DNA from: an uncultured Nitrospiraceae bacterium
GTDB lineage: Bacteria > Nitrospirota > Thermodesulfovibrionia > Thermodesulfovibrionales > SM23-35
Assembly (NCBI GenBank): GCA_963727775.1
Contig: CAVSHB010000001.1
Span: 1,024,001 to 1,088,000, forward strand
Direction of reading: 5' to 3'
Length of the DNA stretch: 64,000 nt
The position numbers and the translations under genes were made by a program. Each line of letters opens with the position of its first letter. The stretch's first letter is position 1. Shown here piece after piece: positions 17,751-57,040 of the stretch. The notes under the pieces are model-generated. The model was not told the DNA's origin and made no database searches. It was given only the letters and a program-made list of their open reading frames with translations.

Positions 17751-17973
17751 AATGACTTTATTTACAAGGAAAAAATAAAATCAAGGAAGAAAAGCAAATG
17801 ACAGGTGAAGTGATCACCAATTTGAGATGAATTGATGTGCGCAGTAGATGAAGTATTCAACAAAACTATGAGACCCTTGAAAAAGAGTAGTTGTACTCCT
17901 GTGTTTGGGACTAATTGGTATTCTCTGCCAGGCCATAAGGTAACTACGACATCTAAGGCGGTATGGGATAATA

Positions 17974-52900: not shown

Positions 52901-53182
52901 GACTGCCACTATCTCAAAAAACCTGTCCCACCCCGAAATAGTCGAAGCATTCACTGCAGACGGGTTTGCTCTCATGAGCATGGGTTTCTTTAGTTGTGTT
53001 GTATACAATGGGATTAGTGATGATAAGAACTTGCGCAATACCACTGATTTAGGTTTTTGTAAAGACTTTTGTACGTAACCTTAATCGTTCCTATTCCCAT
53101 CGACCGTTTATTTCCAGAGGAAACCTTACGCCTGTAGCAAAAAAGAGACACTGAGGATTTCAGGAAGTAGCCCATGAGGGTG

Positions 53183-53671
53183 TTATGTTTCTTGTTCCTG
53201 GCGTAAATACAATTTGCCAACGCGACTACCTATAAAACCAGCTACGCCTATACCGACGAGGTATCCAATTCCGAAAATTACGCCGATAAGAGCGGTGGCT
53301 ATGCATATCCCTGATAAAGCAAAGGCTTTCCACCCCGAACGTTTTTTATAGCCAATCTGCAGTTTTATTGTCGTCCCAATTTTGGTATTTATATCCATTG
53401 TGTTGCTTTTTATCCAGTCAATCTTAATTAGAACGCTATGTGGCCCTGGAGCAAGAGGAATTAGTGATGTTGTGCCGTTCTTTATTGAGCCTACCTTTTC
53501 TCCATCAACCAATATTGAATAGGAGCGCAGGCCTCTACTCAGATGAGATTCTCTATAAATTTCTAAGTTACCAGTTGGCAGTGTAGGCAGTTCATGAACG
53601 AGCGCAATGTGGCAATCGCTGCAAATAGTAAAGCCAGATCTATATTCGGCTTTACAGGCTGAACAAAACAT
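53183..53671 (-). CDS. Hypothetical protein with an N-terminal zinc ribbon and C-terminal TM helices
   Basis: MFCSACKAEYRSGFTICSDC; GGAGG RBS. Confidence 0.72.
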   Translation of the reverse strand: MFCSACKAEYRSGFTICSDCHIALVHELPTLPTGNLEIYRESHLSRGLRSYSILVDGEKVGSIKNGTTSLIPLAPGPHSVLIKIDWIKSNTMDINTKIGTTIKLQIGYKKRSGWKAFALSGICIATALIGVIFGIGYLVGIGVAGFIGSRVGKLYLRQEQET

Positions 53672-53954
53672 TCAAAATATCCTCCTCCAATAAGGCTGTT
53701 GGCGAAATCGATTACCAATTGTAACTTACGCTATTCTATCAAATCCCGGCGATGAGGACTACAGTCAACTATCATCAGTTTGCCTTTCTTAATGGAATAA
53801 AAAGATTCCTGATGTTTGTGATTGAGAATAATTGCTCCATCACCATTAGCACATTTTTTGACATTGAAGAGGCAAACCCGGGAAACGAGCTTCGTAGAAT
53901 CGCATAGAATCGATTTTCTCGGATCGACCCATATCCCAGATACCCTATTGTGAA

Positions 53955-55169
53955 TCATGAATTCGCCTTTACGCTGAAAGTAGTTTTCTGTGAAAGCATG
54001 GCACATATTACCCTGATGAGTTTATGAGCAGTAGCTATGACGGCCTTTTTGTAGATCAACCCGTCTTTGATTCTTTTCTCAAAGTAGCGATGAAAATATG
54101 CTTCAAACTGGATGACCTTGACGGTCATAAGCCAGATGATCCTTCTGAGATGTCTGTTACCTCGTTTTGATATCTTGCTTAGGCCTACATATTGTCCTGA
54201 TTGGTATACGGAAGGGTCCAGCCCCGCCATGGCAATGACTTGTCTATGACCTGGGAAAAGCCCGGGATCACCTCCAAGCTCAACCAAGAAATTCATGGCG
54301 GACTTCTCACCGATTCCCCGTATAGAGGTGAGAATATCGACATTGTCCTTCATCTGTGCCTGGCATTGCTCTATCAGCATGTCAGTCAGCTCCTGCAGAT
54401 GATCTTCCAATTGTATCAGGATAGATGCCTTTTGCTTGATAATCATCTCTTTGGCGGGACTGGCTGTCCCGATGGAGGTTGCCGCAGCTTTGATAATGGC
54501 GCCAACGGACTCCTCAGTCTGTTTTCCATAAGATCCTGGTATCAGGATCTTTGCTATCTTTGCTCGTTTAGCTTTGCGAATAGACTCCGCAGATGGATAA
54601 TGACACAGCAGGCGGAGCATGGATTTTGTGAAGATGCCCGTAATATGTTCCAGTTCAGGAAATGTAATTGTAAGAACTCTTTTAGTGTCGCTCTTGATTG
54701 CCGTCATCTGGTCGACTAAGCTTTCCCTCTGCCGTGATAGGTCTCTCATGTCCGCATTATCAGGAGTCAGAACATTTTGGGAGAGCGAATCTTTTTTCAT
54801 GCGGAGAAATTGCGCGATGACCATCGCATCTTTTTTGTCTGTCTTGGTCTTCCTCAGTTGAAGTTTCATGAAGTTGCATATGAGCAGGGGATTGATAATG
54901 ATTACGGTAAATCCTTGGGACGTAAGGAACGAGAAGAGGTTGATATGGTAGCATGCCGTAGATTCCATGCCGATAAGGATGGAATCCTTAGGTCCCTCTA
55001 TAGATGAGACTTTCATGAGCAGTTCATCGAACCCGCCCCTGCTCATGGAAGCAGATACGCGGAAAAGTTTTTCTCCATTACTTCCTATACAGCATGCATC
55101 AAACTTTTCCTTCGAGATATCGATACCAAGAAAGATTGTGAACTCTGCCTTTTCATGTGTTTCGGACAT
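53955..55169 (-). CDS. IS110-family DEDD recombinase/transposase
   Basis: GIDISK, MESTACY, KTDKKDA, GLDP...SG, SKRGN, AHKL; GGAGG RBS before the ATG at 55169. Confidence 0.95.
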   Translation of the reverse strand: MSETHEKAEFTIFLGIDISKEKFDACCIGSNGEKLFRVSASMSRGGFDELLMKVSSIEGPKDSILIGMESTACYHINLFSFLTSQGFTVIIINPLLICNFMKLQLRKTKTDKKDAMVIAQFLRMKKDSLSQNVLTPDNADMRDLSRQRESLVDQMTAIKSDTKRVLTITFPELEHITGIFTKSMLRLLCHYPSAESIRKAKRAKIAKILIPGSYGKQTEESVGAIIKAAATSIGTASPAKEMIIKQKASILIQLEDHLQELTDMLIEQCQAQMKDNVDILTSIRGIGEKSAMNFLVELGGDPGLFPGHRQVIAMAGLDPSVYQSGQYVGLSKISKRGNRHLRRIIWLMTVKVIQFEAYFHRYFEKRIKDGLIYKKAVIATAHKLIRVICAMLSQKTTFSVKANS

Positions 55170-55189
55170 ACGAAAACCTCCTGCGTTCC

Positions 55190-55372
55190 GGTAAAAACAG
55201 GAAATGCCTCCCCACCAATCCTCCATCGTGACTAGGATTCTTTGACCCGATCAACCTATTATGGTTTTGGGAGGCAGGGGACATACTGAAGTAAGGGTTC
55301 TGTGACCCAGGAAGAAAGAAGCCCTCCTGCCTTTCCAGACTGATTATATTATCTGAGTATGAAATACTCATA
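55190..55372 (-). ncRNA. Candidate IS110 bridge/seek RNA
   Basis: Stems gagta/tactc, aggcagg/cctgcct, gcctccc/gggaggc and aatcct/aggatt with large internal loops; expression not shown. Confidence 0.5.
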
Positions 55373-55548
55373 CTGGGTTATAACATAAACTCATGGTAGG
55401 AGGAAGAAAATGACTCTCCGTATTTCTATTAGAAGGTCTCATTACCGCAGCCTGGAAGGTAGGATTAGAACACCGTATACTGTACACTCACAGTCTTTCC
55501 AATTACGGATCTATCTTCCGCATCTCTCCCCGTCTGCCGGTCCACCGA

Positions 55549-56247
55549 TTAAGAGGACTTCAATTTGCTATTTTTCAGGTGTCCTCTTAACTTTAATCCT
55601 GCTTCAATGTATTTATGCCGAGCTATGAAATCAGGCACCTCTATGAAGTTCTTTGTCGCACCGCTTGCCTCTTTCATCTCTTCGCCGCTCGGAGCAATGA
55701 CCATAGCGGATATCACCTTTGTAGCATCAAGACCTTCAGCGAGCTTTTTTACCAATTTTCTATCCGAAATTCCTAATTCATCCATAACAGCAGCGATTCC
55801 ACCACTTTTGCCCACTACACGATCAACGATTTCCGTTGCTTTTGAACTGACAGTTGTTTCGGCATAACCGGCTAACCGACAGGCTTCCGCTTTGCTCTTC
55901 CCTTCTATTAAGGCTTCTTTTATTTTCTGCTCGCGGATTACCTGCACTGCGTTTGTTTTAGAAGGTTTTACGGGAGGTTTTCTTTTTTTCTTAGCTTCTG
56001 ACTTAGCAGGTAAAGAGCCATCTGTTTTAATCTGCTTGCTTTGTGACCGAAGCAAAATGAAGAAAGCTTTGGAAATATCCTTTTTGCAACTACTGCAGGT
56101 TATTATCGGATTGAAGACTTGCCATAGTCCTTCCTGTTTGTAGGTTATTTGGATTTTGTTATTGCACTTAGGACAGATAAAGGATTGTGTGGCGATAGGT
56201 GTTACTTGCTTCTCTTCAGCAGTCTCGTTTTTCGTGCCTATGCTCAC
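55549..56247 (-). CDS. Phage-like protein with a zinc ribbon and a terminase-small-subunit-like HTH region
   Basis: CPKC/CSSC; GKSKAEACRLAGYAETT; LAEGLDA...VPDFIARHKY. Confidence 0.6.
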   Translation of the reverse strand: MSIGTKNETAEEKQVTPIATQSFICPKCNNKIQITYKQEGLWQVFNPIITCSSCKKDISKAFFILLRSQSKQIKTDGSLPAKSEAKKKRKPPVKPSKTNAVQVIREQKIKEALIEGKSKAEACRLAGYAETTVSSKATEIVDRVVGKSGGIAAVMDELGISDRKLVKKLAEGLDATKVISAMVIAPSGEEMKEASGATKNFIEVPDFIARHKYIEAGLKLRGHLKNSKLKSS

Positions 56248-56459
56248 TGGTGAACACTCCTTTTGTCGTCAAATTTTAAGCAATTTAGGTTCATAGCTCT
56301 GCACCTCACAAATATATCATATTCTATTAGATTTTGGTCGATTTTGCTCGATTTCAGCAGTAATTCGAAAACACAATTAGCAGTTATTTTACAAAGTGGT
56401 AACCTTTGTACGAATCGCTGCCTGCGTAGCATTAAGAGGACTTCGTTTTCTTTACTCAC
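56244..56459 (-). CDS. Small hypothetical protein coupled to both neighbours
   Basis: 4-bp overlaps with the flanking ORFs. Confidence 0.45.
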   Translation of the reverse strand: MSKENEVLLMLRRQRFVQRLPLCKITANCVFELLLKSSKIDQNLIEYDIFVRCRAMNLNCLKFDDKRSVHQ

Positions 56460-57040
56460 TTCGCTTCCTCCAACAACCTTTTCTGTTCTTTAAGCCTTCT
56501 CACTACTTCTTCCGCTGGCATATCATCAAGGCCAAGTCTTTTACGCCTCGCTTCATAGGTTTCCAGGGGTACATTTATGGTGACCTGCTCCTTAAGCATG
56601 CCGAGTCGTTGCATCTTTATTCGAATGGCTTGCAGTTTATCAAAAAACTTCAGCGTCCTGTGGGTCCCGATCTGGGTTTCGAGGATTCCCATCTCCTTCA
56701 CACAGGCGACCTGCTCGACTGTAAGCTCGTGGATATTCTTCAATTCCCCATTCTCATGCACGAAATCCTTGAGATTAAACCGTATTATCGTGTCAAGGTG
56801 AGCCTCCACTTCATGAGCCTCCATAAGTGCTTTATGAGTCAAGTTCTTGAGGGAATTACGAGAATTAGCAATCGCAGTTTGAATTTGAGGTTTTTTGAGG
56901 TTTTCATACCCAATATGATAAGCCGTATTCTTCGAGTAACCCGCACGAATCGCTGCTTGTGTAGCATTGAAATCTTTCAGGTACTCGGCGACAAAGAGCT
57001 GTTCTTTCGGGGTAAGCTGACCGTTCTTTCTTATTGGCAT
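56456..57040 (-). CDS. Terminase small subunit
   Basis: LTPKEQLFVAEYLKDFNATQAAIRAGYS..TA..IGYENLKKP; KFFDKLQA. Confidence 0.9.
   Translation of the reverse strand: MPIRKNGQLTPKEQLFVAEYLKDFNATQAAIRAGYSKNTAYHIGYENLKKPQIQTAIANSRNSLKNLTHKALMEAHEVEAHLDTIIRFNLKDFVHENGELKNIHELTVEQVACVKEMGILETQIGTHRTLKFFDKLQAIRIKMQRLGMLKEQVTINVPLETYEARRKRLGLDDMPAEEVVRRLKEQKRLLEEAK

Follow-up and report, generated by a model that had tools for sequence, protein, structure and literature searches.

An intact IS110-group insertion sequence with a predicted bridge RNA in an uncultured Nitrospiraceae bacterium, delimited through its relatives

IS621, an insertion sequence (IS) of the IS110 group found in Escherichia coli, is described as encoding a recombinase that joins DEDD and serine-containing Tnp domains, with a non-coding RNA upstream of the recombinase gene (PMC11208160, PMC11208158). 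As reported, the bridge RNA of IS110 elements begins with a hairpin at its 5′ end and continues with two stem-loops, whose internal loops match the target and the donor, respectively (Durrant 2024, PMC11208160). According to the same accounts of IS621, the left guides are same-sense with the top strand, to which the right guides are complementary, the core that the guides read is CT, the right donor guide is short, and a promoter has its −35 box in the right end and its −10 box in the left end. Elements of the IS1111 group, with their seekRNA, share the recombinase superfamily and RNA-guided target choice, and are described as usually having the non-coding region downstream of the gene, target-matching segments in reversed order and subterminal inverted repeats (Siddiquee et al. 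2024, PMC11187229). Here we analyse a window of 64,000 nucleotides (nt) from contig CAVSHB010000001.1 of an uncultured Nitrospiraceae bacterium (assembly GCA_963727775.1), in which positions 55400-53765 of the minus strand very probably form an intact IS110-group insertion sequence, predicted from its sequence to move by bridge-RNA-guided recombination. The element is a canonical member of the group with a bridge RNA, is new solely as a member of the family and adds no new principle; unlike the IS1111 group, with its downstream RNA, it has the structured, guide-bearing region upstream of the gene. It is a clean example from nature of the bridge-RNA mechanism reported in 2024, found in an environmental lineage that is uncultured and far removed from E. 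coli.

The protein places the element in its class. The gene is as follows:

53955..55169, minus strand: recombinase gene, 404 amino acids, with Shine-Dalgarno AGGAGG at 55182-55177 and residues D17, E69, D111, D114 and S324-G325

The open frame that contains it (53955-55226, minus strand) matches PF01548 (7.6e-40) and PF02371 (1.1e-21), and both domains confirm the IS110 class proposed in a first-pass annotation of this DNA made from the sequence alone; by sequence, the product has the N-terminal DEDD RuvC-like domain and the C-terminal Tnp domain with its serine that define the family. Relatives align from residues 7-13 of the 404-residue version, and the ATG at 55169 is the likely start. 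Matches among solved structures include ISCro4 (PDB 9t56, 4.9e-23), the best sequence match among them and compared here by protein alignment only, and IS621 (8wt6, 8.4e-21). The GID, ME, TDxxD and SG motifs of the solved recombinases align with D17, E69, D111, D114 and S324; the roles of these residues in IS621 are described by Hiraizumi (2024, PMC11208158).

Because the genome holds a single full copy of the element, its ends had to be set from relatives. At the DNA level, a search of 100 related genomes gave matches in 25 of 101 genomes, the window's own counted, and scans of genome and metagenome collections gave 160 further loci, including relatives at 71-90% amino-acid identity; the comparison drew on about 125 related loci. 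The resulting boundaries and flanking features are:

53765..55400, minus strand: insertion sequence proper, 1636 base pairs (bp), from CCTACC... to ...TAGTTGA, set by close relatives (71-90% amino-acid identity) with differing flanks on both sides, with which distant relatives concur
55401..55409, minus strand: left target half and core in the host flank, TTTCTTC + CT, the core CT being 55402-55401
53763..53771, minus strand: right-end tip TAGTTGA (53771-53765) and core CT (53764-53763); TTGACT (53768-53763) forms a −35 box
53758..53762, minus strand: right target half GTAGT in the host flank, from which point the flanks of copies diverge; 4/5 match to the guide-predicted GAAGT
53772..53954, minus strand: extra 3′ segment, in which a module (53954-53789) is followed by a diverged duplicate of the last 17 nt of the gene

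In nine close relatives (L118-L124, L138 and L139), unrelated flanks abut CT/CCTACC on the left and TGATGA TAGTTGA/CT on the right (the slash marking the boundary). The window copy and three others (L038, which is the copy in genome G054, L117 and L125) carry the tip GATGA TAGTTGA-CT about 180 nt past the stop codon, and the right flanks of these four all differ (GTAGTCC, GAAGTCA, GAAATAA and GTACCGT). Since relatives with unrelated flanks share the same tips, the element spans 55400-53765 with a CT core, present on both sides of the window copy. TAGTTGA and the core are kept in all close relatives compared. The wider set agrees: across 27 aligned 5′ regions conservation starts at ...C-CT-CCTAC, not at 55374, with TGnTATAA 12-13 nt further on, and in 17/17 relatives (the G054 copy left out) TAG TTGAC stands at most 9 nt after the stop codon and is followed by divergence. 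Identity to relatives is 71-86% at the nucleotide level in the non-coding core (55337-55194), 65-70% in the gene and 45-51% in the protein. At three paralogous loci of the same genome that lack the IS, ...CTTC-CT gives way to unrelated sequence, so that CTTCCT must be host DNA. In three runs, contigs of copies that are about 93% alike begin at 53762 and stop at 55406/55410. By eye the tips CCTACC and TAGTTGA are unrelated, although no formal inverted-repeat search was made.

The first-pass annotation had instead put the ends at 55374 and 53945, with AG at both, and had named different ends in other copies as the observation that would speak against it. The alignment of other copies that it proposed was run and returned exactly such ends: the left one lies 26 nt further out, at 55400, and the right one 180 nt further out, at 53765. 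Position 55374 is close to the predicted RNA start, and 53945 is internal to the element, the right end having been missed because a segment of about 185 nt separates the stop codon from the true right tip. AG does occur at 55374-55373 and 53946-53945, but the core is CT; as both ends and the core dinucleotide were wrong, the target AACCCAGGGTAT and circle junction CACAATAGTATGAG reconstructed from them are spurious and never existed. Two other right ends considered by us were also dropped, TGATTCA + CA at 53951/53949, suggested by positional homology to TGATAGTTGA-CT, and AGGGTAT-CT at 53941/53939, the alignment of copies having shown the canonical tip at 53771-53765. The idea that the G054 copy occupies the same site as the window copy was rejected, its right flank being different past TAGTTGA-CT. 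Two metagenome copies, L122 and L124, have right flanks that are alike save for one base and left flanks that differ, a pattern that recombination between copies might explain.

Between the left tip and the start codon lie 231 nt of non-coding sequence, and comparative evidence supports the view that this stretch encodes an RNA with the published bridge-RNA architecture. Its predicted parts are:

55377..55385, minus strand: TGTTATAAC, extended −10 box of the promoter predicted for the bridge RNA, TATAAC (55382-55377) being preceded by TG
55356..55374, minus strand: 5′ stem-loop of the RNA, AGTATGAG...CTCATACT, which folds as a 7-bp hairpin
55272..55332, minus strand: target-binding stem-loop (loop 1), with basal helix 55332-55321/55282-55272, an internal loop and an apical helix within 55308-55295
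55210..55271, minus strand: donor-binding stem-loop (loop 2), with basal helix 55271-55263/55216-55210 and an apical helix within 55248-55235

The fold was assessed on an alignment of 67 non-redundant sequences (<93% pairwise identity) drawn from 102 distinct ones, in which each stem-loop consists of a basal helix, an internal loop, a 4-bp apical helix and a small loop. Helices 1 and 2, in loop 1, are paired in 98.3% and 98.9%, with compensatory changes at 3 pairs, and helices 3, 4 and 5, in loop 2, in 92.3%, 83.5% and 98.5%, with compensatory changes at 6 pairs. Over the 24 specified pairs, 95.3% of cells are paired, compared with 30-62% after a shift of the 3′ partners by 1-3 columns; the compensatory changes, at 9 pairs, fill 87 cells against 25.3 ± 5.5 in shuffles, and 0 of 500 shuffles reached 87. 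RNAalifold gave no basal helix for loop 2; that helix was placed by hand on inspection of the alignment. At the place of the 5′ stem-loop, relatives have other sequences, many of them also hairpin-forming, for example ACGGGTTTTACCCGT. The covarying loops and the two-loop fold thus support the earlier suggestion of a structured 5′ non-coding end encoding a bridge-type RNA. Upstream of it, TGnTATAA is kept at the same place in relatives and the −35 box at the right tip is conserved as well; with the two ends abutted, TTGACT and TATAAC are spaced by 18 nt. Transcription is predicted to start near 55371, and the promoter formed across the joined ends would fire as in IS621.

We then compared the internal loops with the sequences that they are expected to read, following the strand rules of Durrant (2024), under which the 5′ strand of loop 1 is compared with the left flank in the same sense and the 3′ strand, reverse-complemented, with the core and right flank. 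The guides of the window element are:

55309..55318, minus strand: left target guide and core, CTTTCTTC-CT, in the same sense as the left flank
55286..55292, minus strand: right target guide ACTTC-AG (reverse complement CT-GAAGT), matching the core and right flank CT-GTAGT at 6/7
55250..55256, minus strand: left donor guide GGTTGAT, matching the right-end tip AGTTGA and the first core base
55221..55224, minus strand: core of the right donor guide, GGAG, complementary to CT-CC (core and left-end tip)

On the left, CTTTCTTCCT (55318-55309) and the flank TTTTCTTCCT (55410-55401) share nine contiguous identities (55317-55309), and this 9-mer arises in 29 of 20,000 shuffles of the true non-coding end. 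On the right, ACTTCAG (55292-55286), read as its reverse complement CTGAAGT, agrees with CTGTAGT (53764-53758) at 6/7 positions. The window site fits its own guides at 15/16 positions, and for this reason the copy most likely reached its present site by guided insertion.

The same correspondence holds across the family. Guides were taken from alignment columns, extraction by regular expression having proved too strict (11 loci); a left flank could be read in 111 and a right end in 91 of 126 aligned sequences, the others running off the contig or being without the tip motif, and removal of duplicates left 101 unique left and 83 unique right pairs. At left positions −8 to −1, guide and flank are identical in 605/808 cases, compared with 475.7 ± 10.1 when flanks are permuted, and at right positions +1 to +8 they match in 363/664, compared with 280.2 ± 8.5; 0 of 2000 permutations reached the observed match on either side. 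The signal is found at −8 to −1 and +1 to +5, and guide and flank correspond base by base with the expected polarity, same-sense on the left and antisense on the right. The roughly 125 loci therefore constitute a natural covariation set that delimits the guides to about 8 nt plus the core on the left and the core plus about 5 nt on the right. Covariation between loop and target across homologues, one of the checks proposed at the first pass, is thus present, but in the guides at 55318-55309 and 55292-55286. As a separate observation, the 9-mer TTTCTTCCT occurs six times in the window, always on the minus strand, against 1.14 expected; the occurrences outside the element are at 17784, 36822, 46824 and 47354.

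The set also includes natural variants in which the core has changed from CT to CA. Three loci (L026, L027 and L030) have CA in place of CT before CCTAC; wherever their other end is present in the data, CA also follows TTGA. Their right target guide ends in TG in 3/3 cases, as against AG in the other 113 loci, and it is from this AG that the CT core of the loci without CA can be read. In the CA variants, changes are restricted to the two top-strand-pairing guides, both left guides keeping CT. In the right donor guide, GGAG is found in 106/115 loci with data, and the sole two loci with GGTG are CA-core ones (site CA-CC); the window's own guide matches at 4/4. For the left donor guide, the variable base of the right tip TAG[T/A]TGA agrees with that of the guide G[T/A]TGAT in 89/90 loci (74 T/T, 15 A/A and 1 discordant).

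Taken with what is described for IS621, these features suggest how the element would move. Excision as a circle would rebuild the promoter by bringing the −35 box at the right tip next to the −10 box in the left end, across a joined-end junction reading ...GATGATAGTTGA-CT-CCTACCATGAG... (after Durrant 2024 and Hiraizumi 2024). An RNA of about 180 nt would then start near 55371 and bind the recombinase, as in IS621. Loop 1 would pair with the target TTTCTTC-CT-GAAGT, its left guide with the bottom strand and its right guide with the top strand, and loop 2 with the joined ends ...AGTTGA-CT-CCTAC...; cleavage by S324 would take place beside the CT core, and the circle would be inserted through strand exchange. 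By analogy, we infer expression, circle formation and mobility for the window element. It differs from IS621 in several respects, the recombinase being distant (the 8.4e-21 match extends over parts of the protein), a 183-nt extra segment standing before the right tip, and the window system being known from sequence alone. IS621 targets a repetitive extragenic palindromic (REP)-type site, unlike TTTCTTC-CT-GAAGT.

A number of results weigh against the reading of the window element as a guided mover. As a lone copy in its genome, it leaves recent activity unproven. No empty site was found: its right flank was sought in 60 relatives, with matches solely in its own genome. Contigs of related copies (4 runs, 85% likeness) contained no end-to-end joint, and among the 20 runs that contain the stretch (shares ≤0.16, kept as contigs) there is no RNA run. 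The single-sequence fold of the window RNA is not better than that of shuffles (z = −1.32); an Rfam scan of 53000-56500 at E ≤ 1 returned no family, a further difference from IS621. For the integrated state, a consensus promoter scan of 53600-55600 gave no minus-strand sigma-70-like site, and its total did not exceed that of shuffles. Within the guides there is one mismatch between the right target guide and the right flank, GGTTGAT is identical to AGTTGA-C at just 5/7 positions, the other two being wobble-compatible with the bottom strand, and the right donor guide, at 4 bp, is short. Finally, the permutation controls ignore the relatedness of the loci.

Some of these points would fit a well-preserved but immobile fossil, disabled by the extra 183 nt or by other changes, in which the match of guides and flanks records a past insertion. 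The single genome copy, the guide-flank mismatch, the missing joint in the related-copy contigs, the lack of an RNA run among those containing the stretch and a 5′-truncated remnant of the same lineage in G054 are all in keeping with it. The 404-residue frame is nonetheless intact with its catalytic motifs, as are all helices and both tips, the right one retaining its −35 box; moreover, the four module-bearing copies sit at four different right flanks, and since the same extra segment is found at four different sites, the form that bears it has transposed. We therefore consider a fossil unlikely. Another possibility is that protein or target structure chooses the target and that the loop-flank identities are by-products of shared descent. 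Relatives do share guides and target preferences, which the permutation test, ignoring phylogeny, does not separate, and a 2026 preprint reports, in what it describes of another IS110 element, a structural layer of target recognition. Yet the identities run base for base at variable positions and in the strand sense that an RNA predicts, in the CA-core variants the RNA is altered at precisely the complementary bases, and reprogramming of IS621 is reported to have been shown experimentally (Durrant 2024, PMC11208160), so that we give this explanation a very small chance.

The model of the first-pass annotation, with an element at 55374-53945, an AG core, CATAATAG as left donor guide and CCTGGGT as target guide, retains virtually no probability. 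Its strings do exist: CATAATAG is present at 55263-55256 (minus strand), in the 5′ strand of the donor-binding loop, but it is not the donor guide, overlapping the real one (GGTTGAT, 55256-55250) by one base, and CACAATAG (53950-53943), to which it had been matched, falls within the element, in the first bases of the extra 3′ segment. CCTGGGT is likewise present at 55311-55305 (minus strand), yet it is nearly invariant scaffold and not a guide, being made up of the last three bases of the left guide and core (CCT) and the 5′ strand of the apical helix (GGGT); it is kept in relatives with different targets, the GGGT/ACCC helix being paired in 98.9% of the 67 aligned sequences. As evidence, the two matches amount to no more than chance, since in 1000 shuffles of the 203-nt stretch used at the first pass an exact target 7-mer in either sense arose 108 times, a 7-of-8 donor match 564 times and both together 61 times. 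Homology among copies with unrelated flanks also continues past both of its ends, and the right target guide of all 113 non-CA loci carries AG, which implies a CT core. A single copy was thus insufficient for reading ends and guides, the class having been called correctly and both ends and both guides wrongly. The reading that we prefer remains that of an intact, bridge-RNA-guided element at 55400-53765.

The element lies between two genes pointing the same way, about 90 nt upstream of a 162-residue frame (53671-53183). Its left flank (55401 to about 57050) forms the extreme end of a ≥1.5-kb module with terminase-small-subunit-like genes (PF03592, 1.1e-32 for 57040-56456), of which the genome has five copies, that of the window and L002-L005. 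L002, L003 and L005 lose homology directly after CTTC-CT and continue with G.A, which makes them unoccupied near-cognate targets; L004 loses it about 10 nt earlier. The terminase-type module ends exactly at the IS target. On contig 3 of the same genome, a distant paralogue (L006, about 48% amino-acid identity) has its own conserved 5′ RNA, whose left guide matches the flank (TTTCAC-CT) and whose right guide does not match the right flank.

A sister group of eight loci (L010, L011, L012, L015, L016, L021, L032 and L036) is a lead, not a result. Its guides together spell the reverse complement of an ideal ribosome-binding site and start codon, for example CATATCAC-CT-CCTTTAA, and the left tip CCTAC restores part of AGGAGG. 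With sister loci grouped by right guide and at least 120 nt of flank required, a divergent open frame begins within 25 nt of the left end in 5/8 sister loci compared with 4/83 in the window's group. In a non-exhaustive literature search on IS110, no listed title or abstract dealt with elements targeting such sites, and the one mention examined had to do with a cargo construct.

The extra 3′ segment adds 183 nt between stop codon and tip in the window copy and is absent from the nine close relatives; in L128, in L136 and in contigs from three runs it is longer by 55 nt. The diverged 17-nt repeat that closes it (53788-53772) corresponds to 53972-53955. IS110 elements are reported to grow by additions (Hu et al. 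2026 preprint, 10.64898/2026.08.14.744561), and the expanded, cargo-bearing elements as described there similarly carry extra DNA inside their boundaries, flanked by a duplication of element sequence; the window addition differs in being just about 183 nt long and in having no recognisable gene. A motif of about 65 nt within the module occurs at six places in the genome, the window copy being one, four others lying in the 3′ non-coding region of a second IS110-family element and one upstream of an excisionase-like frame about 1.3 kb from tRNA-Sec; the loci that bear it include L199 (1500-1560), L198 (1500-1620), L128 and L136, and it is present in 3/301 genomes of the order, the window's own counted.

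One frame of the motif is open in three divergent versions (28, 29 and 33 codons), with the pattern M-G/D-x-x-E-K/I-I-D-x-x-x-F-Y/H-E-A-x-F, the 28-codon version being that of the window segment (53932-53846, minus strand); a second frame, open in the window motif, is interrupted by a stop codon in L199. Pfam gave no match for the 91- and 72-residue frames or for three micro-frames, an Rfam scan of L198 and L199 returned just tRNA-Sec, and no guide-like matches were found among those looked for in the 183 nt downstream of the gene. That the segment is a portable accessory module of RNA-guided IS110-family elements, and not junk, is an improbable reading; were it true, a segment encoding a small protein, or a site regulating excision or expression, would be a third component of bridge-recombinase elements. 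The module is accordingly offered as a lead and not as a result. The second IS110-family element (L199-L201 and L203-L207), which is unrelated to that of the window, has both Pfam domains, is present in at least four identical copies in the same genome, and carries about 510 nt of non-coding DNA past its stop codon, in an IS1111-like layout.

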